Shown: piece by piece, positions 2 to 56,863 of the stretch
Numbering within the stretch: position 1 is the stretch's first letter
How the letters are laid out: every line of letters begins with the position of its first letter
Source: an uncultured Spirochaetota bacterium
GTDB taxonomy: Bacteria; Spirochaetota; UBA4802; UBA5550
NCBI GenBank assembly: GCA_963827275.1
Contig: CAWHAA010000008.1
Coordinates: 256,001 to 320,000 of the forward strand
Length of the DNA stretch: 64,000 nt
Direction: 5' to 3'
The notes under the pieces: generated by a model
The model's database searches: none
Seen by the model: only the letters and a program-made list of their open reading frames with translations
What the model was told of the DNA's origin: nothing
Translations under genes and position numbers: made by a program

Positions 2-1387
2 GGTAAAGGAATTGGGTTGGACAGTGACATTTGACCCCGCCAGATAGAAGGTGGTCGTGGTGGAGCCGGTGGCCCCGTTCGGATTATAGGTAACCGCATA
101 CTCAGGCAGGATGATATAGGTCTGCTGAACGATCGGGGAACTGTTCCAGCCATCCAGTATCGCGATGGCGCGGATTGTTATTGTGGACGGCAACGGCAAG
201 CTGATATAGTCGCCGCTGCCGATCTGTGTGCCGACGCCCTGCGCGGGATCGGTGACGCCGTCCGTGGTGTACCAGATCTCCGCCGACGCAGTACCGCACG
301 TTACGAGGATTAGCTGATTCGGCGGATAGGTGCCGCTCCCCGGATTTAATACCGGGTTCGACACCGTGCCCAGGGCGGCTGTCGAGAAGACCCAGGTATA
401 ATCGGCCGCCAGGCCGTTACCTTCAAGGTCCCTCACTCCGGCGGTAACCGTGGCGGTATATGATTCGAGCCCGTCCAGCGCTGCACCTGGCGTGAATATT
501 GCGGTCCAGGTCAGCGCATCATAGGTGACCGTGCCGCTTACGGGATTGCTGTCACTGTCCGTCAGGGTAAATGTAGAGGTATTGATAGACGTCCCGTCCA
601 TCGATTTGCTGAAACGGGCTTCGATGACACTCGAGACCGCAACGCCTGCGTCGCCGTTCGCGGGACTCACTGACGTAACTGCAGGCAGGATCGTATAGGT
701 CCTGCTAGTAATGGACGAATCATTCCATCCCGACAGTACCGCTATGGCACGGAAGATCATATTGGTGGATACGGTAACCGTCCCGCTGCCGCCGGTGATC
801 GGGGTGCCGACGCCGCTGGCCGGATCGCTGCCGTTGGTGGTATACCAGATTACGGCCCCGGTCTCAGTGCAGCTAATGGTGACGTCAAGCGGCCCGGTAT
901 ATGGGCCGGACAGGTAATTGAATTCCGGCGCCGGCACTGTGCCCGCTGCGACCGTGGTAAAGCGCCATGTAAAATCCGCCCCAAGGGTGTTCCCTTGGAG
1001 ATCCGCCACCGCCGCGGAAACGGTGGCAGTGTAGGATGAAAGCATGTCCAGCGTCGCGCCGGGCGTGAATGTTGCGGTCCAGTTCACAGCATCATAGGCG
1101 ACCGTGCCGCTTACGGGATTGTTATTGCGGTCAGCAAGGGTAACGGTGGAGGCGCTGATGGAGGCCGGGTCAATGGCCTTGTTGAAACGCGCCTGTATCA
1201 CGACGTCCGTTGCGATGCCCGTTGAATTGTTTTCCGGGCTCACGGACGCAACACGCGGAAGCACATTGCCATCCAGGCCAATGAGCGACAGCAGGTCGGC
1301 ACTGCCGCTTTCAAGCTTGTTGCTCCAGCAGCCGAGAGACAGCATCATGGACGCGACAAGACCCGCGGTCACGAATTTTCTCATCAT
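2..1387 (-). CDS. Surface lipoprotein with alternating Ig-like (Big_5/SbsA-type) and chitobiase-C/FN3-associated domains; 3' end runs off the window
   Basis: Not in the ORF track because it has no stop in the window. Manual translation from ATG 1387 gives MMRKFVTAGLVASMMLSLGC (lipobox), then VASVSPENNSTGIATDVVIQARFNKAIDP...VSGTVAYD...ATFTP...YTATV...FTT and PAPEF...VTISC..GAVIWYTTNGSDP. Both units recur. Confidence 0.8.
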   Translation of the reverse strand, partial: MMRKFVTAGLVASMMLSLGCWSNKLESGSADLLSLIGLDGNVLPRVASVSPENNSTGIATDVVIQARFNKAIDPASISASTVTLADRNNNPVSGTVAYDAVNWTATFTPGATLDMLSSYTATVSAAVADLQGNTLGADFTWRFTTVAAGTVPAPEFNYLSGPYTGPLDVTISCTETGAVIWYTTNGSDPASGVGTPITGGSGTVTVSTNMIFRAIAVLSGWNDSSITSRTYTILPAVTSVSPANGDAGVAVSSVIEARFSKSMDGTSINTSTFTLTDSDSNPVSGTVTYDALTWTAIFTPGAALDGLESYTATVTAGVRDLEGNGLAADYTWVFSTAALGTVSNPVLNPGSGTYPPNQLILVTCGTASAEIWYTTDGVTDPAQGVGTQIGSGDYISLPLPSTITIRAIAILDGWNSSPIVQQTYIILPEYAVTYNPNGATGSTTTTFYLAGSNVTVQPNSFT

Positions 1388-37492: not shown

Positions 37493-38749
37493 TCAGGAGT
37501 GTTTGTTCAGGAGGTTCGCCAGCTCGACGCGGTTTGAAAGCCCTGTCTTGTGATAGATGTTGTGGATGTGGCTTTTGGCTGTCTGCAGGGAGATTTCGCA
37601 CTCGTCCGCTATTTCGCCGGCCGAATGGCCGCCTCCCAGAAGGAGCAACACCTCGAGCTCGCGGTCCGTGAGTCCCGCCTGCTTCTGCAGCTCCCCGAGC
37701 CCGGTCTGCTCGCGGGCGATTACGAGTACGCCCGCGCAGGCGCCGATTTCATTTACCAGCGGGTGCATGAAGAGCTCTACGATGACGGCCTGTTTCCCGT
37801 GCAACAGGCTGAATGTTACTGAGCGGGCCGGCGATGCGCCGGAAAGTATCTTGCTGAGAGAATATTGAAACGATTCACTCTCCCTGAAGAGTGCGGCAAG
37901 GGAGAGCTTCCCGCAGCACCCGGTGGCGCCGAGGACGATCTCACGGGCGCGGTCGTTCATGAACACCAGATCGCCGCGTCCATCGGTGAGAAAAACCGCG
38001 TTGCTGATTCCGCTGAAAATCTCGGACGCGGTGCTTGCCGGCACCACGTTCATGAGCTTGTATTTCCAGATGGCGAACCGCATCGCACCGATGAAAAATA
38101 TCGCTACCGCCTGGTGGTAGGCGTCGCCGATGCGAATGGTCACTTCCGCGGGCAACAGCAGCGTGAGGGCGTTCTGCGCCAGCGACAGAACGGCGGTGGT
38201 GGATGCGGCCGCCAGTATCATCCCCGCCTGCTTCCTGATTTTATCCGTGGTGGTGTTTCTCCGCCAGCTCATGAGCGCCGCGATGCCGGGCAGAAGGATC
38301 ACGGAAGAATAGTTGAACGCGACCCAGAACCAGGGAGACGCGAGATCGTAGAGGACCGTCCATCCCCAGGGGCTTTTATACAAGCCTTTCACCACCGGGA
38401 CGAAGCAGCTCATCCCCGCGATGACGCACGCGCCGCTGCCATAAAGCAGTGCGAGGAAATACGGGCTTCGTGAGAGGTTGCGATACCGGGTCAGCTCCAT
38501 GATGAAGTGTATGATCAGCATAACCACGAGAAAAAAGAGAGGGGAGTAGAACATCAACCATGCCCTGGCGGCGGTTGCGTCCGGCGAAACAATGAGCTGC
38601 ACGTACGCCAGGGAAAAAACGGCATAGAGAAACGCGGCCGCTGCATAGAGGCGGTTGGCAAGGGCCTTCCGGTTTAGCCTATAGACTGTTATGCTGCATT
38701 CGAAGCAGAAAAGCGTGGTTGCATAATAGATGAGTATTTTCAGGATCAT
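37493..38749 (-). CDS. HisKA_7TM-like membrane sensor + PAS-like domain + LuxR HTH (one-component regulator)
   Basis: About 7 TM helices; ISNAVFLTD.RG...FMN PAS start; LTDRELEVL..G.S..EIA....ISLQTAKSHIHNIYHK; start approximate. Confidence 0.8.
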   Translation of the reverse strand: MILKILIYYATTLFCFECSITVYRLNRKALANRLYAAAAFLYAVFSLAYVQLIVSPDATAARAWLMFYSPLFFLVVMLIIHFIMELTRYRNLSRSPYFLALLYGSGACVIAGMSCFVPVVKGLYKSPWGWTVLYDLASPWFWVAFNYSSVILLPGIAALMSWRRNTTTDKIRKQAGMILAAASTTAVLSLAQNALTLLLPAEVTIRIGDAYHQAVAIFFIGAMRFAIWKYKLMNVVPASTASEIFSGISNAVFLTDGRGDLVFMNDRAREIVLGATGCCGKLSLAALFRESESFQYSLSKILSGASPARSVTFSLLHGKQAVIVELFMHPLVNEIGACAGVLVIAREQTGLGELQKQAGLTDRELEVLLLLGGGHSAGEIADECEISLQTAKSHIHNIYHKTGLSNRVELANLLNKHS

Positions 38750-39162
38750 TGCACAAGAGGTCATTCCCTGCATAAAAAAGACGCTGTAATTACAGCGCGG
38801 ATACAAGTGTGGCGGAGGGCCCTGTGCGGCGCAAGGACTTTTTCTTATGAATCTGACGCCAGGACGCAGGCCGCAGCATGGGCCCATCGGCTTCGCCCGG
38901 AGCAGACCTGTCGAAAAGCCGCGCGATATCGACCGTTTGCAGGTACATGCAGGAAAAACAGACGGGAACTGCGGATGATGAAGAGCATCCTTTTGCCCTC
39001 CGTCCCCATGAACAGGGAAGGAGGCCGGGGGCGGTCCCGCGCGGCCGGTCGGGGGCAATTGAGCGATTATTGCATGAAATTTCCACTTCGGTCTTGACAA
39101 AATAAAATTTTTAGCCACTAGTATACCACGCCCGGGGGGTGCCGCGGGGACGCGGTGTCATT

Positions 39163-40557: not shown

Positions 40558-41997
40558 TTACACGGCAGGGCATTCCCTTCCCGCCAGGTACCGGTCGATC
40601 CCTTCAGCCGCCATCCTGCCGTCCTGTATCGCGTGCACGACCAGCGAGGCGCCGCGCGATGAGTCGCCGGCGGAGAACACGCCGTCAACGCTTGTCATGC
40701 GGTTGTCGTCGATCGCGATGTTGCCGCGGCCGTCGAGCGCGAGGCCGAGGTCCGCCACCAGCCCGGTGTGGACCGGGTGAACGAAGCCCATGGCGATGAG
40801 GACAAGCTCGGCGTCCAGGGTGAATTCTGACCCCGGGACCTCTTCCATGGATGGAGCGCCGTCCGCCCCCGTACTCCACTCGACCCTGCGCGCCGCTATC
40901 CCCGCGACACGGCCGTGGGACCCTGTAAATTTTTTCGTGGATATGTTCCACATCCTCGTGCACCCTTCCTCGTGGGAGCTCGAGGTCTTCATGAGCTTCG
41001 GCCAGAGCGGCCACGGCTCGCCCGCCGAGCGGGTGGGCGGCGGCTGCGGCAGGAGCTCAAGCTGGGTCACGCTCCGCGCGCCCTGGCGGTTCGCGGTGCC
41101 GACGCAGTCCGAGCCGGTATCGCCGCCGCCGATGACCACGACGTTTTTGTCAAGGGCGCGTATGATCCGGTCTTCCGGTATGGCGGCCCCTTTCACCATC
41201 ATGTTCTGCTGGATCAGGTAATCGAGGGCGAAATGTATGCCCGCAAGCTCCCTGCCTTCGATGGGCAGGTCCCGGGGCTCGCGCGCGCCGATCGCGACGC
41301 ACACCGCGTCGAAATTCATCCTGATTTCCGATGAAGAGATCTCCCTTCCCGCCATGATCCCGGTCTTTATAATGATTCCTTCCTCGGTAAGTATCCTGAC
41401 GCGCCGGTCGATGATCTGCTTGTTCAGCTTGAAGTCGGGTATGCCGTAGCGGAGGTACCCGCCCACGCCGTCGGCTGATTCGAAAACCGTCACGGTATGG
41501 CCCCTTTTATTCAGTAAATCGGCGCAGGCCAGGCCCGCGGGACCGCCGCCGATCACCGCGACCTTTTTTCCGGTCCGGCGCGCGGGCGGCTCCGGCTTCA
41601 CCAGTCCGAGCGCGAAGGCCTTCTCTATGACCGCGAGTTCGTTCTGTCGTATGGTGACGGCCTCGTCTCCTATGGAAAGCACGCACGACGCCTCGCACAG
41701 TGCGGGACATACCCTGCCGGTGAACTCGGGAAAGTTGTTTGTCTCCCGTAAAATGTCGTACGCGCCCTTCCAGTCGCCGCGGTAGACGCGGTCCTGCCAC
41801 TCGGGCATGATGTTCGACACCGGACAGGCCCAGTGGCAGAAGGGCACGCCGCATTCCATGCAGCGGGACGCCTGCAGGCGGCGCTCGTCCTCGGGGAGCT
41901 GTTTCTCCACCTCGCCGTAGTCGTCGATCCGCTCTTCAACGGGCCGGTACCCGGCCTCCTGGCGTTTTATTTTTTGAAAGCCCTTTGGATCACCCAT
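40558..41997 (-). CDS. gltD: Glutamate synthase small subunit
   Basis: RCMECGVPFC, NNFPEFTGRVCPA.CE, GGGPAGL, GGGDTGSDC. Confidence 0.97.
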   Translation of the reverse strand: MGDPKGFQKIKRQEAGYRPVEERIDDYGEVEKQLPEDERRLQASRCMECGVPFCHWACPVSNIMPEWQDRVYRGDWKGAYDILRETNNFPEFTGRVCPALCEASCVLSIGDEAVTIRQNELAVIEKAFALGLVKPEPPARRTGKKVAVIGGGPAGLACADLLNKRGHTVTVFESADGVGGYLRYGIPDFKLNKQIIDRRVRILTEEGIIIKTGIMAGREISSSEIRMNFDAVCVAIGAREPRDLPIEGRELAGIHFALDYLIQQNMMVKGAAIPEDRIIRALDKNVVVIGGGDTGSDCVGTANRQGARSVTQLELLPQPPPTRSAGEPWPLWPKLMKTSSSHEEGCTRMWNISTKKFTGSHGRVAGIAARRVEWSTGADGAPSMEEVPGSEFTLDAELVLIAMGFVHPVHTGLVADLGLALDGRGNIAIDDNRMTSVDGVFSAGDSSRGASLVVHAIQDGRMAAEGIDRYLAGRECPAV

Positions 41998-41998
41998 G

Positions 41999-44900
41999 TC
42001 AGTATGTCGCCCCCAGCTGTTCTTCTTCCCTGATCCGCGCGAGTTTTTCGTCGATCTGGGCGAGCCTCTGTTCGTCCATCGCCCGCTTGTATTCGAGCGG
42101 CAGCACCTTCACAAATTTCGTCAGATATTCGTGCCAGTTTGTCAGGATCTCTTTCGCGACCGTGCTCCCCGTGTATTTCAGGTGCTTCTCAAGGCACTCG
42201 ATGATGAATTCCTGGTCCTCGAACTCGCGGAGCGGCGACAGGTTCACCATCCCCCTGTTGCAGAAGTATTCGAAGGTCGCGTCGCGGTCCAGCACGTAGG
42301 CGATCCCGCCGCTCATGCCGGCCGCGAAGTTCCGGCCCACGCCCCCGAGCACGATGATGCGTCCGCCGGTCATGTATTCCGCGCAGTGGTCGCCGGTCCC
42401 TTCCACGACGGCAATCGCGCCGCTGTTCCGGACCGCGAAGCGCTCGCCCGCGATCCCGCGGATATAGGCCTCGCCCGACGTGGCGCCGTACAGGACCGTG
42501 TTGCCGATTATGATGTTCTCTTCAGGGGCGAATGTGCTCCCCGCGGGCGGCACTGCGATCAGCCTGCCGCCGGAGAGCCCCTTGCCGAAATAGTCGTTCG
42601 CGTCGCCCTCCAGCCGGAAGGTGATGCCCCGCGCCAGGAAGGCGCCGAAGCTCTGGCCCGCGCTTCCGCGGAAGGTGCACTGGATGGAATCCTCCGGCAG
42701 ACCCTCCTCGCCGAAGCGTTTTGAGACTTCGTAGGAGAGCATCGTACCCACGGCCCGGTCAGTGTTGCGTATCGGCATGCTGACCGTGACCGGCATGCGC
42801 CCGTAGGGGGCCATCGCCGGGCTCGACCGCTCGATGAGCGTGCGGTCCATGACATCGTCGATCCGGTGTACCTGCGCCTGCACGCAATGGGCCGGATTCA
42901 GTTTCGCCTCCGCAGGGACAAAGAGGAGGGCGGACGGGTCCACGGTCCCCGCCTTCCAGTGGTCGATGGCCCGCACCGCGAGGAGGTCCCTCCTTCCCAC
43001 CAGGTCGTCGAACGTGCGGATGCCGAGCTCCGCCATGATCTCCCGCACCTCCGCGACGAGGAAGCGGAAGAAGTTTACGAGATGTTCCGGCCTGCCGGTG
43101 AATTTCTTTCTCAGCTCCGGGTCCTGCGTGGCCACGCCGACCGGGCAGGTGTTCTGGTGGCACTTGCGCATCATCACGCAGCCGAGCACGATGAGCGTCG
43201 AGGTGCCGAACCCGAACTCCTCGGCGCCCAGGATGGCCGCGATCACGATGTCACGGCCGGTCTTGAGCTGGCCGTCGGTCTGGAGGCGCACCCTGCCGCG
43301 CAGGTCATTCATGACCAGGGTCTGGTGGGTCTCGGCCAGGCCGATCTCCCAGGGAAGGCCCGCGTGCCTTGATCGAACTGATGGGGCTCGCGCCCGTGCC
43401 GCCCTCGAAGCCGCTGATCAGGATGTTGTCGGCGTGGGCCTTGGCCACCCCGGCCGCGATAGTGCCCACGCCGGACTCGGACACCAGCTTCACGCTGATG
43501 CGGGCGCGTCGGATTGGCGTTTTTCAGGTCGAAGATAAGCTGCGCAAGGTCCTCTATCGAATAGATGTCATGATGGGGCGGCGGCGAGATGAGCGTCACG
43601 CCCGGCGTCGAATGCCTCGTGCGCGCGATGATCTTGTCCACCTTGTAGCCGGGAAGCTGGCCGCCCTCGCCGGGCTTCGCGCCCTGCGCTATCTTTATCT
43701 GGAGCTCGTCCGCGTTCGCGAGGTAGTTGCTGGTGACGCCGAACCGCCCCGACGCAATCTGCTTGATGGCGCTCCGCACCGAGGTGCCGTCCGGCCGTGG
43801 CAGGAAGCGCTCCGGGTCCTCGCCCCCTTCGCCGGAGTTGCTCCGCCCGCTCAGGGAGTTCATCGCCGCCGCGATTGCCTCGTGCGCTTCCTTCGATATC
43901 GACCCGAAGGACATGGCGCCGGTGGTGAGGCGCTTCAGTATGTTTTTCTCCGGCTCCACTTCGTCTAGGGGGACCGGGGTCTGCGGTTTGAAGTCAAACA
44001 GTCCCGCGGATGAAATGCGGCGTCCGGTTCTCCGCGTCCGCCAGGCGCGTGAATTCCTTGAACGTAGCGTAATCGCCCGTGCGCGTTGCCCACTGGAGCA
44101 GGTAGATCGATTCCGGGTTCCAGGCGTGGCGTTCGCCCTGCTTGCGGTACTGGTACTGCGCCCCGTGATTCGAGGAGCTCCGGCCGCCGGTTGAAGGCGA
44201 TGTCGTGCTGCAGCAGCGCCTCGCGCTCGACTTCGGCCGTGGCCGATGCCGCCGATGCGTGACTCGGTGCCGGTGAAGTAGGAATCGATGAGCTCCGGCG
44301 CCGAGGCCGACGGCCTCGAAGATCTGGGCGCCGCGGTAGCTCCGGAGGGTGGAGGTCCCCATCTTGGAGAGCACTTTTAGAAGTCCCTTGTTGAGCGCCT
44401 TTATGTAGTTGTCTTCGGCCTTCATGTAGCGGAGGTTGTTCAGCTCTCCGCGGGTCGCGAGGTCGTGGATGGTCGCGAAGGCGCCGTAGGGGTTGACGGC
44501 GCTCGCCCCGTAGCCGAAGAGGAGGGCGAAGTGCATCACCTCGCGCGCCTCGGCGGTCTCGATGATGAGGCCGATGCGGGTGCGCTTCTTGGTCGCGGAT
44601 CAGGTGGTGGTGGACCCCGGCGCAGGCAAGGAGGGACGGGATCGGGCGCGTTGTCCCGGTCGGCGCCCCGGTCGGAGAGTATGATGTACGCATACCCCTG
44701 GTCAATTTTTTCCTCAACAGCGGCGCAGAGGGCGTCGAGCGCGCGCTTCATGCTCCCCGGCGCGGTCTTTACCGGGAAGGTCATGGGGAGCGGTGACGGC
44801 CTTGAACTCCGGGATTGTCGTTCGCCCGCATGGTCTCGATGTTGCGGTTGGTAAATATCGGGCTCTTGAATTTGATCATGCGGCAGTGCTCGGGCGTTTC

Positions 44901-46551
44901 ATCCAGGAGGTTTTTCTGCTCGCCGATATAGCTGGTCAGCGTCATGACCAGCTCTTCGCGGATCGGGTCGATCGGCGGGTTGGTCACCTGCGCGAAGCAC
45001 TGCTTGAAATAATTGAACAGGCGCTGGGGCCTGTCCGAGAAGACGGCCAGCCGGGCGTATCGGTCCCCATGGAGCCGGTCGGCTCCTGCGCGGTTTCGGC
45101 CATCGGGGCGATGATGTCGTCGATGTCCTCCCGGGTGTACCCGTGCATCAGCTGCATCTCATGGAGCGCTTCTTCATCGAGCGCGACCGGGACATCGCCC
45201 GTTACGTCCAGGTCCTCCAGGTTTACCCGGTTCAGCTGCACCCAGAGGCGGTACGGCTTCCGGGTGTAGATCGGACCGCTTGATCTCGTCATCGGGTATG
45301 ATGCGCCCCTCCTCCATGTCGACCAGCAGCAGTTTGCCGGGCATGAGGCGCCCCTTGTAGACGATCTCGTCGGGCAGGAAAGGTCTGGACCCCCACTTCG
45401 GAGCCCATGACGATCAGGTCGTCGCGGGTGATCACATAGCGCGATGGCCGCAGGCCGTTCCGGTCCAGCGTGCCGCCCACGTACCGCCCGTCGCAGAAGA
45501 CCATGGAGGCGGGGCCGTCCCATGGCTCCATGAAGGTGGAGTGGTACTCGTAAAAGTACTTCAGCTCCTCCGGGATCGGGTTCTTTTCGTTCCACGATTC
45601 CGGGATGAGCATCATGAGGGCATGGGGCAGGGAGCGGCCGGCGAAGTAGAGCATCTCCAGCGCGTTGTCGAAGGAGGCGGAATCGCTTTTTCCCGGCTCG
45701 ATGACCGGCAGGATTTTCTTTATGTCGTCGCCGAACCGGGGAGACACGAAGGCGGATTCGCGCGCCGACATCCAGAACCGGTTTCCCTTGATGGTGTTGA
45801 TCTCGCCGTTATGGGCGATCAGCCTGAAGGGCTGCGCCAGGTCCCACGAGGGGAAGGTGTTGGTGCTGAAGCGGGAATGGACCAGGGCGACGGCGCTTTC
45901 GATGCGCTGGTCGAGCAGGTCCCGGTAATAGTGGCGCACCTGGTTGGGCATGAGCATGCCCTTGTACACGATGGTCCTGCCCGAAAGCGACGGGATATAG
46001 AAAAGGCCTTTCTGCGCCAGGGCGGAGTTCCTGATCCTGTTTTCGATCGTCTTGCGGATGACATACAGCTTCTGCTCCGGAACAACGGCGTCCCCGCCCG
46101 CCGCGATAAATACCTGTTTCATGGCCGGTTCGGAGGCCCGGGAAATTTTCCCCAGCACGGAATTGTCCACGGCGATCTCGCGCCATCCGAGGGTCTTCAT
46201 CCCTTCTTCGGCGATAACACGTTCGAGCTCTGAAACGCACTGCGCCGCCTCGCGCTCATCGCGGGGAAGGAACACGATGCCGGTGCCGTAGCGTCCCGGG
46301 TCGGGAAGGGAGGGCAGGTCGGCCCTGTAAAGCCCGTGCGGGATCTGCATCAGGATGCCCGCGCCGTCGCCGGTCTTGTTGTCGGCGCTTTCCGCGCCAC
46401 GGTGCTCCATCCGCTCCAGCACCTCGAGCCCGCGGCGGATGATATCGTTCGAAGGCGTCCCCTTTATATGTGCGACAAATCCGATGCCGCATGAATCGTG
46501 CTCATGGGCGATGTCGTAGAGTCCTTCCTGTTCCGGTCGCTGCTGCATCAT
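41999..46551 (-). CDS. gltB: Glutamate synthase large subunit, interrupted by many frameshifts
   Basis: HDSCGIGF N-terminus, [52 protein letters not shown] and C-terminal GXGXG. Span is about 4.55 kb (full length) but split over 8 or more ORFs. Confidence 0.93.
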
Positions 46552-46662
46552 CTCCTGCGGGCTCCTCGTGTCGTTATATCACCGTGATGGTTCCGGCCGT
46601 TTCTATGCAGGGTCATATGTAACCTGCCGATGATTCTAATCAATAATATATCATAATCTATA

Positions 46663-46676
46663 TTACAAAAATGTAA
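46663..46676. promoter_or_regulatory. Candidate operator palindrome TTACA-N4-TGTAA
   Basis: Perfect inverted repeat in the divergent gltB / XRE-gene intergenic region. Confidence 0.35.
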
Positions 46677-46793
46677 AATTAATTATTTCTTACAAATTAT
46701 TAAGTGATTCTTAACAGGCGGGGATTATATTGACAATTGAAAGGCAGTGGTGTAATACCATATAACGTTTTCATGAGGCACGGGACACGAACT

Positions 46794-48062
46794 ATGATAA
46801 GTACCGGTCTGGCATATCTGGACAGGTTGACGGGCGGCCTGAAGCTCGGCGATAATGTCGTATGGGAGGCGGCGGACGGTGTGCCGGTCGAGAACTTCAT
46901 CAGGAGCTTTTTCGATGCGGCGCCTAAATTCAGCGGGACCGTAATCTACATCAATTTCAATTTTTCGCCGCACACCCTGCTCAGGCGCTATGACTGGCTG
47001 TTCAACAAGAAAAATTCCATCCTCGTGGACGCCTTCACCCACGGGAAGGGCAACAGCGACAATGTGTTCCTTGATTTCTACACGAGCGGGCAGCATGACC
47101 CGGAGCGCTTCATCTGCATAGAAAATCCGAGAAACATAACCTCCTTCGTGAGTATCCTGAATGAGATAGAGATGAAACACAAGGAGGGGTCGTTTTATAT
47201 TTTTGACGGCGTCACCGGGATGAACGAGCTGTGGAAAGACGAGACGGCGGTCCTCGATTTTTTTACCTTCACCTGCCCGAAGCTCTATGACCTGAACGCG
47301 CTCGCCTACTGGGTCCTCAGCCGCGAGGCGCATTCCCGCGAGTTTATCGCCGGCATCATGCATATCACACAGATCGTATTTTCAATAAACGCCACCGATT
47401 CCGAATATTACGAGCTGAAGGTCCACAAGCTGCAGGACCGGACGCCGCTCTACGGCTCGCAGCCCAGCTATTTCAGGATGATCGAGCAGAAGATCGTGTT
47501 TGATGACAAAAAGATCAACGAGCAGATAAGGATCGGCGAAAGGGTGAAGGGCCTGAGAAAATCGGCGCGCATGACCCAGGCGGAGCTTGCCGCGGCCCTC
47601 ACTATGACCCCGGGCGCCGTGTCGCAGATTGAAAACGACATCATCACGCCGTCGCTGCAGACCCTGCTTCAGCTCTCGTCGGTATTCGGCAGGCCCGTTG
47701 ATTACTTTATCGGGCTGTCCGACGCGGGCAAGGGGAGCAGGGGCTATACCGTCTCACGGAGGGGCGGGTATCTGCCTGTTCCGCACCGGGGCGCGGAGGT
47801 GCTCCGCATTCTTGAAAAGGAATACGGGGGATTTACGCCCTACCTGGTGACGCTGGGCGCCGGCAACACGGTGCCCGGACCGGTCCTTCTGCATAAGGGA
47901 AGGGAATTCATACTGGTGACCGGGGGGTCGCTCAGGCTCGAAGTCGATGACGAGACCATCGTTCTCGATGAGGAAGACGCCATGCTGATAACCGATTCGT
48001 TCGTGTCGAAATGGGAGAGCGCGGGCGATGCCGGTTGTACATTCATATACATGCTGCTGTAA
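46794..48062 (+). CDS. KaiC/RecA-like (no Walker A) domain + XRE HTH + cupin transcriptional regulator
   Basis: ISTGLAYLDRLTGGLKLGDNVVW start; IGERVKGLRK...TQAELA...VSQIEN..TPSL; cupin HKGREFILV..G. Confidence 0.85.
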   Translation: MISTGLAYLDRLTGGLKLGDNVVWEAADGVPVENFIRSFFDAAPKFSGTVIYINFNFSPHTLLRRYDWLFNKKNSILVDAFTHGKGNSDNVFLDFYTSGQHDPERFICIENPRNITSFVSILNEIEMKHKEGSFYIFDGVTGMNELWKDETAVLDFFTFTCPKLYDLNALAYWVLSREAHSREFIAGIMHITQIVFSINATDSEYYELKVHKLQDRTPLYGSQPSYFRMIEQKIVFDDKKINEQIRIGERVKGLRKSARMTQAELAAALTMTPGAVSQIENDIITPSLQTLLQLSSVFGRPVDYFIGLSDAGKGSRGYTVSRRGGYLPVPHRGAEVLRILEKEYGGFTPYLVTLGAGNTVPGPVLLHKGREFILVTGGSLRLEVDDETIVLDEEDAMLITDSFVSKWESAGDAGCTFIYMLL

Positions 48063-48072
48063 GGGGTCCGGG

Positions 48073-50661
48073 ATGAAGACATTGATGAAGATAACCACCG
48101 GTCTGGCAAGCCTTGACGAGGTGTGCGACAGCCTCCGGCTGGGCGACAACGTGGTATGGCAGGTCGATTCGCTGTACGATTACGAGCAGTTCATCCTGCC
48201 CTTTGCCAGCAGCGCCCTCAAGGGCGGCCGGCGGGTGGTCTATATACGTTTCGCGATGCACGAGCCGCTGCTGGCCCCCCACCAGTACAGCGCCATGTAC
48301 GAGCTTGACGCGCAGCGCGGGTTTGAGCTGTTCACGACGGCCCTCCATGCCATCATCGGGAAGGAGGGCCTGGAGGTCTTCTACGTGTTCGATTGCCTCT
48401 CGGATCTGCAGAGCGCCTGGGCCACGGACCTGATGCTCGGCAATTTTTTCAGCATCACCTGCCCCTACCTGTACGAGCTGGATACCATCACCTATTTCGC
48501 GCTGTTGCGGAACAACCACTCTTTTAAAACGATTGCGCGGATACGGGACACCACGCAGCTGCTTATCGAGGTCTATCACACCGAAAACAACAGCTATATC
48601 CATCCGCTGAAGGTATTGAACCGCTACTCCCCGACAATGTTTTTTCCTCATCTGAAAAAGGGGGAGATGTTCACGCCGATCATAAACAGCATCGAGGCGA
48701 CGCAGCTGGTCCGGCACATACAGAAGCGGGGCCTTGAGAGCACCCTGCGGATACTTGATTACTGGGACCGGATCTTCCTGAAGGCCGAGGACCTGATGCA
48801 GATGTCTGACAGCACCGCCGAGAAGGAGGAGATGGTCCGCCAGCTCTGCAGGATGATCATGGGGCGCGATGAAAAGATCCTGACGCTCGCGCAGGAATTC
48901 TTGACCCTCGAGGACTTTCTCGAGATCAAGGACCACCTGATCGGCACCGGGTTTATCGGCGGCAAGTCGGTCGGGATGATCCTCGCGAGAAAGATACTGG
49001 CGAGCAGGAACAGGTCGAAGTGGGAACGGCTCCAGGAGGCGCATGATTCGTTCTATATCGGCTCGGACGTCTTCTATACCTACATCGTCCATAACGGCTG
49101 GTGGAAGCTCTTCATGGAGCACAAGACAGACGAGGGGTACCTGACCGCCGCCGCGCAGCTGCGCGAGCGCATACCGACAGGAAAATTCCCGGACGAGCTC
49201 AAGGACAAGTTCCGCCAGGTAATCGAGTATTACGGCCAGTCCCCCATCATCGTCCGCTCGAGCAGCCTCCTGGAGGACGCGTACGGCAACGCCTTCGCGG
49301 GCAAGTACGAGAGCCTCTTCCTGGTGAACCAGGGCCCGCCGGAGACCCGCTTCGCCGAATTCTCGAAGGCGGTCAAGCAGATCTTCGCCAGCGTGATGAG
49401 CGACGACGCGCTCGCGTACCGCGTCGACAAGGGCCTGCAGAAGCTCGACGAGCAGATGGGCCTGCTGGTCATGCGGGTGTCCGGTTCGTACCATGACAAC
49501 TGCTTCTTCCCGGACATGGCGGGCGTCGGCCTGTCGTACAACCACTATATATGGAACAGCTGCATGGAGCCCGGCGCGGGGATGCTCCGGCATGTCGTCG
49601 GGCTCGGAACGCGCGCGGTCAACCGCACCGAGGGCGACTATCCCAGGATCATCGCGCTGGACTGCCCGCTCATGAAGCCGGTTTCGGGAATCAGCGATGA
49701 GCGGAAATTTTCACAGCGGCATATCGACGTGCTCAATATCACGGACAACAAGCTGGAAACAATAGACGTCGCCGATTATTTCAGGAACAACCAGGTCGCC
49801 ATGTCGCTGATCGGGAAGCGGGACTCGGCCATGGAGCAGCAGCTGCGCGAGCGGGGACTGCCGGAGGGCGAATCATGGCTGGTCGATTTCGACGAATTCA
49901 TAAGCAAGACGCCGTTCGTGAAGGACATGCAGACGGTGCTCAAGATGCTCGAGGAGGTGTACAGGAACCCGGTTGACATAGAGTACACGGTGAATTTCAC
50001 CTCCGAGGGCAATTACCGCATCAACCTCCTCCAGTGCCGTCCGCAGCAGGCCAGGTGGCGCCAGGATACGGTCGTGATGCCGGAATCGGTCGAAGAAGAC
50101 AGACTGTTTTTCAGCTCAAGAGGCGGGTTCCTGGGAGGGAATATCGCGAGCGACATCAAGTGGATCATCGCCATCGACCCGGCCGCCTACAGCGACCTTC
50201 CCCAGGGGGACAAGTATAACGTCGCCCGCCTCATCGGGCAGATCAACAGGAAGATACAGAACAGGCGGGAAGCCCCCGTCATGCTGGTCGGCCCGGGACG
50301 CTGGGGGAGCACGACGCCGTCCCTCGGCGTGCCGGTGAAATACTTCGAGATCAATAACGCGTCGGTCATCGTCGAGATCGCCTTCATGCGCGACGACCTG
50401 ATCCCCGAAATCTCTTACGGGACGCATTTCTTCCAGGACCTGGTGGAGAACGATACCTACTACATCGCGATGACGCCCGGCAAGGAGGAGGCGCGCTTTA
50501 ATCCGGCCGTGCTTTCCCGGTACCGGAACATCGTGGGGGAGATCATCCCGGATGAGGGACGCTTCCATGATGTCATTGCCGTGTATGATGCTGATTATTC
50601 CGTGAGGCTCCTCGCCGATACCGCGAGCCAGAAGGTGCTGTGCTTCGTTCACCAGGACTGA
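48073..50661 (+). CDS. KaiC/RecA-like domain + PPDK/PEP-synthase N-terminal ATP-grasp domain protein (no pyruvate-binding barrel)
   Basis: ITTGLASLD...LRLGDNVVW; IGGKSVG, IIVRSSSLLED..AFAGKYES, GLGTRAV, DIEY, LLQCRP; C-terminal GPGRWGS...SYGTHFF. Confidence 0.85.
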   Translation: MKTLMKITTGLASLDEVCDSLRLGDNVVWQVDSLYDYEQFILPFASSALKGGRRVVYIRFAMHEPLLAPHQYSAMYELDAQRGFELFTTALHAIIGKEGLEVFYVFDCLSDLQSAWATDLMLGNFFSITCPYLYELDTITYFALLRNNHSFKTIARIRDTTQLLIEVYHTENNSYIHPLKVLNRYSPTMFFPHLKKGEMFTPIINSIEATQLVRHIQKRGLESTLRILDYWDRIFLKAEDLMQMSDSTAEKEEMVRQLCRMIMGRDEKILTLAQEFLTLEDFLEIKDHLIGTGFIGGKSVGMILARKILASRNRSKWERLQEAHDSFYIGSDVFYTYIVHNGWWKLFMEHKTDEGYLTAAAQLRERIPTGKFPDELKDKFRQVIEYYGQSPIIVRSSSLLEDAYGNAFAGKYESLFLVNQGPPETRFAEFSKAVKQIFASVMSDDALAYRVDKGLQKLDEQMGLLVMRVSGSYHDNCFFPDMAGVGLSYNHYIWNSCMEPGAGMLRHVVGLGTRAVNRTEGDYPRIIALDCPLMKPVSGISDERKFSQRHIDVLNITDNKLETIDVADYFRNNQVAMSLIGKRDSAMEQQLRERGLPEGESWLVDFDEFISKTPFVKDMQTVLKMLEEVYRNPVDIEYTVNFTSEGNYRINLLQCRPQQARWRQDTVVMPESVEEDRLFFSSRGGFLGGNIASDIKWIIAIDPAAYSDLPQGDKYNVARLIGQINRKIQNRREAPVMLVGPGRWGSTTPSLGVPVKYFEINNASVIVEIAFMRDDLIPEISYGTHFFQDLVENDTYYIAMTPGKEEARFNPAVLSRYRNIVGEIIPDEGRFHDVIAVYDADYSVRLLADTASQKVLCFVHQD

Positions 50662-50745: not shown

Positions 50746-51498
50746 TTAACTCAATTCTTTTATCTTTTCACGCAACGCTCTTTGGAGCGCGTTATAAATA
50801 AACATCTGGATATGCTCCTTGACCGCGGGATGATTTTCGTATTTAAACATTATTATGCATATATTATTCTCATTTCTTGAAGAAATGGCCTTGCCTGAAA
50901 TTTTAAAGACCTTGCCGTCGAGGCGGATTTGAAGATCGTTAAAACAGGTGTCCGCTTTTATTTCTATATTTTCCTGGAAGGAGCATGCCATCGCGAATGT
51001 GCTTATGTCATGGATTATGCCGACATGGATCGCATCACCTATTTTTATGCTGAAAGAGGCCCTGTGCATCTCTTCGCATTTCGCCCTGATATATTTTCTT
51101 TTGCCCCTCGCGTTATGTTTCTCAAGCAGCTCGAGTATTGATTTCGAACAGAGTTCAATGCCGTTCTCGAGGGATACGCATACGCTGGACAGCGATTTGT
51201 ACGGATCAATCTTTTCTGTTTCCTTTGCAATTGCGCCGACCATCACATTCTGGATCGAGTTTATCTGGTCGATCTCTTTAATATATTCATCCCAATTGGA
51301 GTGCCTGAGCGGTTGGTCAACATTGACGAACAGCAGTGATTTGTTTAATTCGGTGAGTAATTTACGGGCTGCCGCATGGTCATTGATTAAAAATGCCTCA
51401 TATTCATTTGTTATAATGTCTTTGATAATCCTGGTCTCGGTTTCCTGGTGCGGGTATAGAAAAAAAATTCTCCTGGAATCGCTGTTCGGATTCAACAT
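50746..51498 (-). CDS. PilZ-domain protein (AT-rich)
   Basis: RKYIR (RxxxR) and DISTFA (DxSxxG-like) in the C-terminal half. Confidence 0.65.
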   Translation of the reverse strand: MLNPNSDSRRIFFLYPHQETETRIIKDIITNEYEAFLINDHAAARKLLTELNKSLLFVNVDQPLRHSNWDEYIKEIDQINSIQNVMVGAIAKETEKIDPYKSLSSVCVSLENGIELCSKSILELLEKHNARGKRKYIRAKCEEMHRASFSIKIGDAIHVGIIHDISTFAMACSFQENIEIKADTCFNDLQIRLDGKVFKISGKAISSRNENNICIIMFKYENHPAVKEHIQMFIYNALQRALREKIKELS

Positions 51499-51814
51499 AG
51501 TAGTAATTTCCTTGTTCTCGTTATAACTTCAGCTGATTGCTTTTTTTGTTGCAATGACACTATCGTTAAGCCGGTTATTTGTAAAAAGAAAAATTAGCGG
51601 GAATAAAAAAATTTCAAGGCCCCTGCCGCGTGGATAGGCAGTACCGGAGAGATTCCGCTCTGTTGTAGCGTCGTTCCGGTTGATTCACAGGTTTTCCAAT
51701 TGATTTTCCCGGCTGATATTCCTTCTCTGTGTTAAGCAATGCTGAATTATTTGCCATATGTCCTTCTTTTGCCCTCTTGCGCTCCGTTATTATGTCACTT
51801 ATCTGAATAAAATT

Positions 51815-51828
51815 TAACATATATGTAA
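51815..51828. promoter_or_regulatory. Candidate operator TAACA-N4-TGTAA upstream of gdhA
   Basis: One mismatch from the palindrome at 46663. Confidence 0.3.
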
Positions 51829-52025
51829 CAAAGGAAATTGAAAATTAATTTGAATTTATACTATAAATAAGGGGTTTAGTTTCACTAATAAGAAATTTTA
51901 ACTGTTCTATAGTTTTGATCAAGCCCTGAAAAAATCCTGAACAGGCTTGAAGCGCATGGTTTGTAACGATTGTATTGCCCACCGTCAGGGTATAATCGCT
52001 CTTTCAGGAATTATTTAACAATTAG

Positions 52026-53393
<1,368 letters not shown>

Positions 53394-53452: not shown

Positions 53453-53617
53453 CAGAAGGCGCCACAGACGTGAAATTTTCCACGGATAGCGCCGCCGGCA
53501 TCCTTTTTTGTTTGACGTTCACAGGGTATTTAAAAACATATGCCTGTGAGAATGTTTGGCAGCGGGACCGGGGAAGGGCGCACGGGTACATACTTCGATC
53601 ATAACAGGAGAACGGCA

Positions 53618-55418
53618 ATGACGAAAAACCAGAAACTCGCAGAATGGGTAAAGGAAATAGCCGCACTGACAACTCCCGACCGCATCCACTGGTGCGACGG
53701 CTCGAAAGAGGAATACGACTCTATAATAAAGATAGCCGCTGACGAGGGGATTGCCACGCCCCTTAATCCGGACACGCTTCCCGGCTGTTATCTCTTCCGC
53801 TCCGACCCGTCGGACGTGGCCCGCGTGGAAAACCGGACCTACATCGCATCACTGACGAAAGATGAAGCCGGCCCGACGAACAACTGGATTGATCCCGTGG
53901 AGCTCAAGGGCATCATGAAGGGGCTGTACAGCGGCTGCATGAAGGGCCGCACCATGTACGTCATCCCCTTCAGCATGGGCCCGGTCGGGTCGCCGATATC
54001 GAAGATCGGGGTGGAGATAACCGATTCGCCGTACGTGGTCGTCAACATGCACATCATGACCCGCGTTGGCACCAAGGTGCTCGACGTACTCGGAGAAACG
54101 GGCGAATTCATTCCCTGCCTGCATTCCGTGGGCAAGCCCCTGGCCCCCGGCGAAAGCGACAACGGCATCTGGCCCTGCGCGCCGCTCGAGAAAAAGTATA
54201 TATCCCATTTCCCCGAAGAGCACGCGATCTGGTCCTACGGCTCCGGGTACGGCGGCAACGCGCTGCTCGGCAAGAAATGCCTCGCCCTGCGCATCGCCTC
54301 GGTGATCGCCCGCGACGAGGGCTGGCTCGCCGAGCACATGCTCATCCTCGGCATCACCAGTCCCGAAGGGAAGAAAAAGTATATCGCCGGCGCGTTTCCC
54401 GTCCGCCTGCGGCAAGACCAACCTCGCCATGCTGATTCCTACCATGCCCGGGTGGAAGGTGGAAAGCGTGGGCGATGATATCGCATGGATGAAGTTCGGG
54501 AAGGACGGCCGGCTCTACGCGATCAACCCGGAAGCGGGCTTTTTCGGCGTCGCCCCCGGCACCTCGATGCAGTCGAACCCCAACGCCATGAAGTCGATTG
54601 ACCGGAATACCATTTACACCAACGTCGCCCTTACCGAGGACGGGGACGTCTGGTGGGAGGGAATCGGATACGATGCCCCGGGAAAGCTTATCGACTGGAC
54701 CGGCAAGGAATGGGAGGCGGGGAAGTCGACCGCACCGGCAGCTCATCCCAACGCGCGTTTCACCGCGCCGGCGCGGCAGTGCCCGGCGATCGACCCGTCG
54801 TGGGAAGACCCGAACGGCGTGCCCATCAGCGCCTTCCTCTTCGGCGGGCGCCGTCCCACCACCATCCCCCTGGTCCACCAGTCGTTTGACTGGAATCACG
54901 GCGTCTTTCTGGGTTCGATCGTGGGATCCGAAATCACCGCAGCGGCCCTGGATCTTGCCCACGGGACCGTCCGCCGCGATCCCTTTGCCATGCTGCCGTT
55001 CTGCGGCTATCACATGGGTGACTATTTCAAGCACTGGATCAAGATCGGCAAGAAGTCAACGGCTGACAGGCTGCCGAAGATTTTCTATGTCAACTGGTTC
55101 CGCAAGACGGCCGACGGCAAATGGCTCTGGCCGGGATACGGGGAAAACAGCCGTGTCCTCAAGTGGATTTTCGAGCGGTGCGACGGTGACGGCGACGCCG
55201 TTGAAACGCCGATCGGCTATATGCCGACACCCGGTGCGATAGACCTCGCCGGCCTGGACGGCGTGAGCGACGCCGACATGCGCGAGCTTCTTACCGTTGA
55301 CCGGGAGGGCTGGCGCAGGGAGTTGGGCCTGGTCAGGGAGCACTACGCGAAGTTCGGCTCCCGGCTCCCGGCCGAGCTTGCCCGTGAGCTTGAAGCGCTG
55401 GAAAAGCGCCTTTCGTGA
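53618..55418 (+). CDS. pckG: Phosphoenolpyruvate carboxykinase (GTP); +1 frameshift near 54399
   Basis: [26 protein letters not shown]. Removing one C restores [10 protein letters not shown], continuing into VGDDIAW, HPNARF, FGGRR and DPFAMLPF. Confidence 0.93.
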
Positions 55419-55714: not shown

Positions 55715-56863
55715 ATGAACATAGAAATAAACAAATTATTCCTGAAAGTTTTGACCAATTCCCTGGAAACCGGCCAGACCAATTATCTGGGCGCGATGCT
55801 TGATCCCGGTTTCAATGTCTACACGGAATCCGGATTTTATACAAATGCCCCGTTGCCCCGCAAGACCGCGGCCGAGGTGCTCCTTGGATATTTCAAGGAG
55901 GAAGACCAGGTGGCAAGGCTCTTCAATATCATGCTTCTCCACGAAGGCCAGCGTTTTTATAACGCGGTGTTGAACATCTGGGGAAGGGATGAGTTTTTAC
56001 GCCTCCTGAAGAGGTACAAGTGGATTTATGACCCGGCCCTTGTCCGTTTGTCCCGCGACCCGTTTTATGAACGTGAAATAAATTTTCTGAAAGAAATACG
56101 GATTATCGACCTCCGCCGGGAGATCCCGGTCAAAGACATCATAAAGGGCATAGAGAAAACCAGCGCGAAGATGAGCGTTCATGACCTTGAGTGGCGCATA
56201 ACGCTGCGGTTATACGACATTGACGCTGAATCGGGAGAGCTCATCAGGAAAATACTCCTGCTGCTGCTCTCCCGGCAGAATTTACAGGAATTCATGCACG
56301 AGATATACGTGTGTCTGAAAGAGCTGGCGATCAATGCGAGCAAGGCAAATTACAAGATCCTTTTTGAAAAGTTTGTGACCCGGCGCCAGGGCATCTCTCC
56401 GGACAGGGACTACGTGCGTTTTTTAAAGCTTTTTAAGGACGAGATAGAGCAGAATGGCAACAAACGGCTCCTCGAGCTGGCCAGGCAGAAGGACCAGTAC
56501 ATCACCATAACATTTCAATCGACAATTGACTCGATTGAGGTCTGGGTCAGCAACAGCCAGAATATTTCCCTTATCGAGAAGCAGCAGATCCTGAAAAAGA
56601 TAAGCAAGAACGAGATCCAGTATAACAAGGAGGCGGAGCCTGACGATGAGTATACCGAAGGCGCCGGTTTCGGTTTGAACCTTATCCTCAGCATACTGCG
56701 CAGCAGCTCACATGACCCCGAACCCCTCAAGGTCATTTATTATCCTGATTTTATCAAAATCGGCTTTGAATTGTTGAGGTCCGACCTCCGGGAAAAGAGC
56801 AGAAAAGCAGCCGCCGAAGCCGCTGCTGCAGCCGCGGGCGGTGAAAAACCTGCCGGGTTATGA
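55715..56863 (+). CDS. Hypothetical protein with HATPase_c-like (anti-sigma/switch kinase-like) C-terminal domain
   Basis: LKELAINASKAN (N-box-like) and GAGFGL (G2-box-like); no HisKA domain. Confidence 0.6.
   Translation: MNIEINKLFLKVLTNSLETGQTNYLGAMLDPGFNVYTESGFYTNAPLPRKTAAEVLLGYFKEEDQVARLFNIMLLHEGQRFYNAVLNIWGRDEFLRLLKRYKWIYDPALVRLSRDPFYEREINFLKEIRIIDLRREIPVKDIIKGIEKTSAKMSVHDLEWRITLRLYDIDAESGELIRKILLLLLSRQNLQEFMHEIYVCLKELAINASKANYKILFEKFVTRRQGISPDRDYVRFLKLFKDEIEQNGNKRLLELARQKDQYITITFQSTIDSIEVWVSNSQNISLIEKQQILKKISKNEIQYNKEAEPDDEYTEGAGFGLNLILSILRSSSHDPEPLKVIYYPDFIKIGFELLRSDLREKSRKAAAEAAAAAAGGEKPAGL

Follow-up and report, generated by a model that had tools for sequence, protein, structure and literature searches.

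A P-loop-less KaiC-like domain common to an XRE-cupin regulator and a dikinase-like enzyme, and a candidate operator at the gltB and gdhA promoters of an uncultured spirochaete

We analyzed a 64,000-nucleotide stretch of DNA (the window; NCBI GenBank assembly GCA_963827275.1, contig CAWHAA010000008.1, positions 256,001 to 320,000) from an uncultured Spirochaetota bacterium, in which two neighbouring forward-strand genes encode a putative nitrogen regulator and a dikinase-like enzyme that begin with the same type of inactive KaiC-like (iKaiC) domain. The regulator gene (46794..48062; 422 amino acids, aa) encodes this P-loop-less KaiC/RecA-fold domain (aa 1-235; 46794..47498), an XRE helix-turn-helix (HTH) at aa 253-305 and a cupin-like domain at aa 351-414. 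It is followed after 10 bp by the dikinase-like gene (48073..50661, 862 aa), whose version of the KaiC/RecA-fold domain (48085..48693) has an internal deletion of about 40 aa and is joined to an ATP-grasp domain of the PEP synthase (PEPS) and rifampin phosphotransferase (RPH) type (48955..50091, aa 295-673; Pfam match PF01326, PPDK_N) and to a C-terminal domain (50110..50658) that carries GPGRWG and SYGTHFF motifs and a histidine, His785 (50425-50427). Divergent from the pair, on the reverse strand, lie gltB (41999..46551) and the adjoining gltD (40558..41997), while downstream on the forward strand lies gdhA (52035..53393), encoding an NADP-specific glutamate dehydrogenase (GDH; 747.9 bits, cut-off 536). 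Two palindromes, Box A and Box B, occur both in the gap between gltB and the regulator gene and before gdhA. In the gap, Box A occupies 46659..46680 (core TTACA-N4-TGTAA at 46663-46676; it resembles a GlnR box and is the top position weight matrix site in the genome), and Box B, the candidate operator, occupies 46701..46713 (TAAG-N5-CTTA), 38 bp from Box A and with a TTGACA at 46730, 16 bp further. Before gdhA, Box A is at 51811..51832 (core 51815-51828) and Box B at 51876..51888 (TTAG-N5-CTAA), 38 bp 3' of a TTGAAA that, with a TATAAA 18 bp past it, forms the presumed promoter. All the elements of the layout given by a first-pass annotation of this DNA, namely the divergent gltBD, the gene pair 10 bp apart and the downstream gdhA and pckG, were found.

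The N-terminal domains of the regulator and the enzyme align over 218 columns at 28% identity (E 2e-24), which bears out the homology claimed in the first-pass annotation, and the motifs it had listed (TGL..LD, GDNVVW, YxF, FYxFD, TCPxLY, HS and TQ) recur in both and are conserved across an alignment of 34 rows covering the two types. Neither domain of the window matches any Pfam family. A joint profile of the two matched PH0284 (2dr3; E 3.8e-5) and KaiC (E 0.0065), the P-loop GGPGTGKT falling opposite W(Q/E)xxxGxxxE in the profile alignment, and the regulator's domain retains a DAFTxGKG segment in common with PH0284. In fold searches, AlphaFold models (pLDDT 87 for the regulator and 83.5 for the enzyme) matched PH0284 (E 6e-12), KaiC (E 5e-9; Z 20.1, rmsd 3.2, 210 aligned) and also FlaH. 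Of 385 homologues, 23 without the GDNV motif were set aside, and none of the remaining 362 carried a Walker A motif GxxxxGK(T/S) after GDNVV; the profile and fold searches and this count agree with the RecA/KaiC fold without a P-loop that had been proposed. The CPxL motif is present in 368 of the 385, and the Walker B Asp (D138) and the K212 and R216 of the K..R finger motif, both of which have roles in KaiC/RecA-like ATPases, are invariant in the 34-row alignment. The regulator and enzyme subtypes of the domain differ by a 40-aa segment.

A profile search with the shared domain gave 1338 representatives at E 0.001, and domain fusions were read from the best 150 of these. Besides standing alone, the domain heads GAF-sigma-54 activators (three), a Ser/Thr kinase, PAS/GAF histidine kinases and an archaeal PAS-DUF835 protein, and all fused and stand-alone forms keep the GDNV and CP motifs and lack the P-loop. 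The fusion proteins are P0255, P0268, P0276, P0264, P0308, P0321, P0374 and P0344. That inactivated KaiC-like domains occur within signalling proteins is an existing idea (PMC5847659). The range of fusions is the pattern of an input domain and, because the partners include sigma-54 activators and kinases, favours a mobile sensor over a private heterocomplex. It is probably a reusable sensor of nitrogen status, and the common ligand sensing suggested in the first-pass annotation is consistent with its many fusions.

A dedicated heterodimer module would predict coupled genes, and the lack of coupling between the regulator and the enzyme likewise supports the input-domain reading. Co-occurrence was counted in 121 genomes of the order, including 74 of the 76 with the enzyme (two with weak or fragmentary matches were excluded): 37 have both genes, 37 the enzyme only, 12 the regulator only and 35 neither, and the two lie within 5 kb of each other in 13 of the 37 with both. 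Enzyme and gdhA are tightly associated in the same sample (71 both, 3 enzyme only, 9 gdhA only, 38 neither) and lie within 5 kb of each other in 60 of the 71 genomes that have both. The constant partner of the enzyme is GDH, not the regulator, and its N-terminal domain is exchangeable. In a second phylum, gdh lies within 1.5 kb of the enzyme gene in 14 of 28 loci, and gdh or a GOGAT-type gene accompanies it in 19 of 28; the gdh-linked enzymes there include a 760-aa form with a different N-terminus. These counts tell against the proposal of the first-pass annotation that the enzyme controls the regulator. The circuit it had drawn, in which the N-terminal domains hetero-oligomerise, the ATP-using enzyme controls the regulator and the regulator toggles GOGAT against GDH, would be compatible with two homologous RecA-fold domains that retain the K..R finger motif, with the adjacency of the genes in those 13 genomes and their presence at the same locus in 12 of 80 regulator loci, and with the opposite geometry of Box B on the gltB and gdhA sides described below. 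However, the regulator is missing from 37 of the 74 enzyme genomes and the enzyme from 12 of the 49 regulator genomes, the enzyme family comprises at least 8000 clusters against 125 from the regulator search, enzyme forms without the shared domain still adjoin gdh, the two subtypes of the domain differ by the 40-aa segment, and the Box B on the gltB side could be for autoregulation only, so that we regard this circuit as improbable.

The HTH of the regulator matches HTH_3 (49.8 bits, cut-off 23), while its cupin-like domain scores 22.8 bits with Cupin_2, under the cut-off of 27.2; in the fold search the model matches the HTH-cupin folds of HppE and 1y9q. A genome scan gave 289 relatives, of which the best 80 loci were analyzed. 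At least one core nitrogen gene lies in 53 of the 80 (GOGAT-type in 43, GDH in 12, amtB in 9, PII in 8 and glnA in 6), compared with 147 of 3902 like-sized windows of the spirochaete's own genome (3.8%), and the link to nitrogen genes expected from the first-pass annotation is thereby seen across phyla. The enzyme gene is present in 12 of the 80 loci, together with GDH in 11 of these 12. The 27 loci without a core nitrogen gene, which include a large spirochaete group adjoining RNase J/FtsK, are a point against the model preferred below. Three other features of these loci were observed. NuoEFG-like genes lie 3' of the regulator gene in 18 of the 80 loci. A stand-alone 520-550-aa protein with a weak match to the glutamate-synthase FMN domain (E 3.5e-15) often stands in for gdhA beside the regulator, and its genes have the same Box A/Box B layout (L068:3854-5437, L006:5149-6810 and more than 30 other loci). 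At L094:1054-3897, GatA and a non-discriminating Asp-tRNA ligase are encoded in one open reading frame (ORF) of 948 aa.

Palindromes were counted over 189 upstream regions with shuffled controls, and Box B, T(T/A)AG-N5-CT(T/A)A, was found in 35 of them (shuffle mean 5.1, maximum 11). The 350 bp upstream of gdhA were compared among 79 genomes (all 80 gdhA matches minus the spirochaete's own genome): Box B is present in 27 of 34 genomes with the regulator and 1 of 45 without it, the lone exception being a genome that is 73% complete and belongs to a genus with the regulator in 6 of 8. The same split holds within genus g1 and families f6 and f7. A TTGAC(A/T) begins 45-51 bp past Box A in 39 of 74 gdhA promoters, and Box B, often in tandem copies 17 bp apart, begins 21-26, 38-39 or 45-54 bp past this hexamer, that is, on the -10 element or the start site; a relaxed Box B near the -35 element is present in 24 of 25 regulator-positive and 1 of 14 regulator-negative promoters, its start positions falling into clusters at +21..26, +38/39 and +45..48 from TTGACA. 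As Box B lies over the -10 and start zone, it occupies the position of a repressor site, and it is likely the operator of the regulator. The recognition helix is similar across phyla, being alike in the spirochaete, Nitrospirota and other loci with Box B, and Box B turns up again ahead of GOGAT-type genes in Nitrospirota and at other loci. The first-pass annotation had the regulator act on the gltB and gdhA promoters, and the candidate operator at both, covarying with the regulator, points the same way.

Several observations weigh against this assignment. The Fisher P of 1e-13 for the association of Box B with the regulator is overstated because kin are not independent; as many as 9 of the 34 positives (6 of them with Box B) may belong to the loci in which the box was discovered, and by arithmetic 21 of 25 would be left without them; and the strict Box B is missing from 7 of the 34 regulator-positive gdhA promoters. 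The promoter positions are consensus readings, and a promoter scan found 5 where 4.6 were expected. Syntrophales-type loci have a different palindrome, CAATAC-N6-GTATTG, and hardly any Box B. Genome-wide matches to Box B were not above those of permuted matrices (13 against 7-58), and no wider regulon is shown by them. The top Box B sites, not above chance, precede a second carB, purL and a PTS IIA gene (G000:C4:707246, C7:210757 and C2:148264), and also gdhA and trx. The CAATAC-N6-GTATTG palindrome precedes GOGAT-type, gdh and regulator genes at L045, L048, L056-L058, L062 and L071, most of which have an NtrC-like gene. If Box B were bound by another factor, or were a feature of the promoter, and only happened to segregate along with the regulator, this would fit the overlap of the left half-site with the -10 position, the dependence among lineages and the seven positives that lack the box. 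Either cause would have to accommodate the gain and loss of Box B in step with the regulator in a single genus and in two families, the 17-bp tandem copies, the boxes beside regulator genes in other phyla and the AT-richer regulator-negative promoters that have no Box B, and we think it has little chance of being correct.

The geometry of Box B is opposite at the two promoters of the window, as on the gltB side the box lies distal to Box A and on the gdhA side it lies proximal, over the promoter. On the gltB side the distance between the boxes is 38 bp in the window, L004 and L006 and 37 bp in L001. Because Box B sits differently at the gltB and gdhA promoters, as do the GnfM sites in Geobacter, a self-contained GDH/GOGAT toggle is possible. 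One version of it would dispense with the enzyme, the regulator alone repressing gdhA and activating gltB in response to its own ligand; this would accord with the opposite geometry and with a Box B whose centre lies about 64 bp ahead of the start site that a consensus gltB promoter would give. That promoter call is at chance level, though, Box B is found at only 3 of 8 gltB regions, and GOGAT-like FMN genes have the geometry seen at gdhA, which makes a toggle worked by the regulator alone unlikely.

Box A, TTACA-N4-TGTAA, was found in 21 of the 189 upstream regions and in none of the shuffles. It was rejected as the regulator's operator, as the strict Box A is present in 99 of the 121 genomes and the regulator in 49, and whole groups, genera among them, have Box A and lack the regulator (strict Box A against regulator, 10/12 and 0/12 in f3, 8/8 and 0/8 in g12, 9/9 and 0/9 in g30). 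The apparent absence of Box A from family f2 is an artefact of the strict pattern. Of the gdhA upstream regions, 33 of the 34 from regulator-positive genomes and 41 of the 45 from regulator-negative ones contain Box A (74 of 79 in all); genomes without the regulator also have it ahead of the enzyme gene, GOGAT-type genes, GSIII and amtB. The sites of the window were left out in training a matrix, which then gave 17 matches at the threshold of 12.8 bits or above in the 4.1-Mb genome of the spirochaete (permuted matrices, 2-11), which has about 1664 intergenic gaps. Thirteen of the 17 precede gltB/regulator, GSIII, gdhA, purF, two amtB genes, carB, pyrG, carA, asnB, glmS, gatA and a NifA-like gene.

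For GlnR of Streptomyces venezuelae the consensus is GTnAC-n6-GTnAC (PMC3087709), and 67 of 74 Box A sites differ from it by one mismatch and 7 by two. The genome encodes a GlnR-like OmpR protein of 216 aa (G000:C2:54373-55020, L264:373-1020) 2.2 kb past amtB-glnK, with 8hih, 8hig and 8hml as its best PDB matches (E 6e-37 to 2e-30; next family 2e-22); 8HIH and 8HML are identified as GlnR in PMC10235972. Its gene is present as a single copy in 98 of the 121 genomes. Taken with the box sequence, this makes the GlnR-like OmpR protein a good candidate, and in our judgement quite probably the one, to read Box A. Two results stand on the other side: no Box A site (0/74) is perfect to the GlnR consensus, and co-occurrence gives no support, since 15 of 17 genomes without a detected GlnR-like gene have Box A, as do 59 of 62 with one; incomplete assemblies may explain the missing genes. 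Given the GlnR-like boxes at both promoters and the GlnR-like OmpR regulator in the genome, the statement in the first-pass annotation that the circuit is Ntr/GlnR-independent is likely wrong, and the circuit is probably not independent of GlnR. A NifA-like sigma-54 activator was considered as the Box A binder and is not favoured, as it was found in 69 of the 121 genomes (0/9 in g30; an initial count scored 12 candidates per genome) and the two amtB genes are the only ones with a sigma-54-like promoter after Box A. These -24/-12 elements lie at G000:C4:229699-229780 and C2:50348-50412; a second Box A overlaps the one at amtB1, and the NifA-like activator gene precedes amtB2. The spirochaete's genome, 92% complete, gave no match to NrpR (NRD domain protein), and it has a single CRP-family gene.

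In the ATP-grasp domain of the enzyme, K298, R395, E401, D402, E637, Q654 and R656 are invariant in 106 of 106 homologues. The best fold match of the enzyme is RPH (5hv1; Z 23.9, rmsd 3.1, 294 aligned), with PEPS and HpeI also matched; NCBIfam PEPS models score it at 48-56 bits against cut-offs of 598-883. Only 183 aa remain after the ATP-grasp domain, and there is no Pfam PEP/pyruvate-binding TIM barrel (PF02896). His785 is kept in all 106 close homologues and in 27 of 28 diverse ones. By eye, its surroundings look like the phospho-His helix of swivel domains; comparison of its domain with the PEP-utiliser swivel domains (PF00391) by hhalign gave no profile match (E 0.25, inside the shuffled range). 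Neither a PDB profile search nor the ESM Atlas gave this domain an assignment, and the whole-model fold search barely probes that part. Other members of the family include proteins of 1460-1510 aa (P0009, P0010 and P0020; for example in Geobacter sp. OR-1) with a tandem-duplicated dikinase-like unit and the N-terminal domain on one copy, paralogues of about 1065 aa with a different N-terminus, and, at L199, an enzyme gene between two NrpR genes with a GOGAT-type gene also present. The enzyme could instead have a metabolic function, as a dikinase or ligase for a small molecule (in glutamate or 2-oxoglutarate activation, for example), with its linkage reflecting a shared pathway and no regulation of GDH. 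The small-molecule phosphotransferases RPH 5hv1, PEPS and HpeI being its closest structures, and the GOGAT-type genes as well as gdh among its neighbours (19 of 28 loci), lend this some weight, while the lack of any substrate-binding barrel or RPH-type domain found, an exchangeable N-terminal domain that heads signalling proteins elsewhere, and near one-to-one co-occurrence with gdhA detract from it. We hold a purely metabolic enzyme to be a real possibility, though short of an even chance.

The model we prefer, with somewhat better than even confidence, is that the regulator represses gdhA via Box B, that the enzyme acts on or beside GDH, and that the shared domain is in each an independent sensor of one nitrogen-status signal. 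The KaiC/RecA fold lacking Walker A is seen in both N-terminal domains, and the same family heads other signalling proteins; in a remodelled pocket with the invariant GDNV and TCPxL motifs, the domain would bind glutamine, glutamate, 2-oxoglutarate or a PII-like partner and so switch the fused output. In the upper tier, the GlnR-like OmpR protein would act on Box A for GS, amtB, GOGAT, GDH and glutamine amidotransferases. In the second tier, the iKaiC-XRE-cupin regulator would bind Box B, with which it covaries across genomes, repress gdhA and the GOGAT-like FMN genes, and regulate itself or gltB. A post-translational tier would consist of the enzyme on or beside GDH, to which its gene is linked; in the weakest step of the model, the enzyme may split ATP at the ATP-grasp domain and pass the phosphoryl group to His785 and then to GDH or a glutamate-related metabolite. 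With the shared domain reading a single ligand, the regulator and enzyme tiers would be coordinated. A bolder version, which we put forward only tentatively and consider rather unlikely as a whole, is that the pseudo-KaiC domain is an unrecognised nitrogen sensor alongside PII, NrpR and NtcA, built into a repressor, sigma-54 activators, kinases and more than 8000 dikinase-type proteins, that these dikinases phosphorylate GDH via phospho-His, and that the second tier lies beneath the first GlnR-type regulon outside actinobacteria.

Other features of the window include some that the first-pass annotation had overlooked, namely the fragmentation of gltB and pckG, an opposite-strand ORF before gdhA and the 183-aa C-terminal domain of the enzyme. 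gltB is aligned in 8 pieces with frame changes between them, and pckG (53540-55418), 3' of gdhA, is in 2 frame-shifted pieces. gltB is intact in close relatives (1514-1520 aa), and the frameshifts in both genes are probably assembly indels. Elsewhere in the genome pyrG, carA and carB likewise appear truncated, which suggests an indel-prone assembly. The AT-rich 250-aa ORF (50746..51498, reverse strand) between the enzyme gene and gdhA has no family match and no BLAST match in the 80 related loci. A 7TM-PAS-LuxR one-component regulator is encoded at 37493-39118 (reverse strand), and a 382-aa ORF without a family match lies at 55715-56863 (forward strand).

A literature search that covered few subscription papers returned nothing on the regulator family, the enzyme family or GlnR in spirochaetes. 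What we regard as new is, first, the family of the regulator, a one-component protein whose pseudo-ATPase input is novel. To this we add Box B, Box A together with its glutamine regulon and the GlnR-like candidate, and the finding that enzyme and regulator are not coupled. Little has been described of how nitrogen is controlled in anaerobic Spirochaetota, Nitrospirota and Desulfobacterota, and this work provides a regulator, a candidate operator of exactly 13 bp that covaries with it across genomes, and another box that has a coherent glutamine regulon and a protein that may bind it. It also provides a very large enzyme family, currently mislabelled 'PEP synthase', with GDH as its nearly constant companion, and a 200-aa domain common to several output types, for which a single ligand screen would be informative for thousands of proteins.

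Among known systems, XRE-cupin regulators such as PuuR and SutR (HTH_3-cupin, 1y9q) share the HTH_3 and cupin-like C-terminal half of the regulator, whereas the window regulator has an extra 235-aa iKaiC domain and a different predicted operator, and scores 30.8 bits with PuuR against a cut-off of 211. RPH, PEPS and PPDK share with the enzyme an ATP-grasp domain with conserved catalytic motifs, and the enzyme has an invariant C-terminal His; it differs in having no PEP barrel or rifampin domain, an N-terminal iKaiC domain, and a His domain not matched to swivel domains. The KaiC-like/UPF0273 ATPases (PH0284 2dr3, SSO2452 and FlaH) and the iKaiC domains DUF835 and MEDS, the latter being inactivated versions used within signalling proteins, have the same RecA/KaiC fold (PMC5847659). 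The window domains differ from them in their own GDNVV and TCPxL signature, the lack of a Pfam match, a mainly bacterial distribution, the tie to nitrogen genes and the fusion to XRE-cupin and ATP-grasp outputs. The present system resembles that of actinobacterial GlnR (PMC3087709, PMC10235972) in an orphan-looking OmpR protein closest to GlnR and in a candidate box, mostly one mismatch from GTnAC-n6-GTnAC, at glnA-type, amtB and gdhA genes; it differs in its Spirochaetota host, AT-rich palindromic flanks, predicted targets that are mostly glutamine amidotransferases, and a second-tier XRE regulator. Regulator sites that overlap the gdhA promoter and give repression are described for GnfL/GnfM in Geobacter, and for Klebsiella NAC as cited there, in PMC2995071. 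In Geobacter the regulator GnfM is an activator of the sigma-54 type and works with a kinase, whereas the window has sigma-70-like promoters and a one-component XRE protein.

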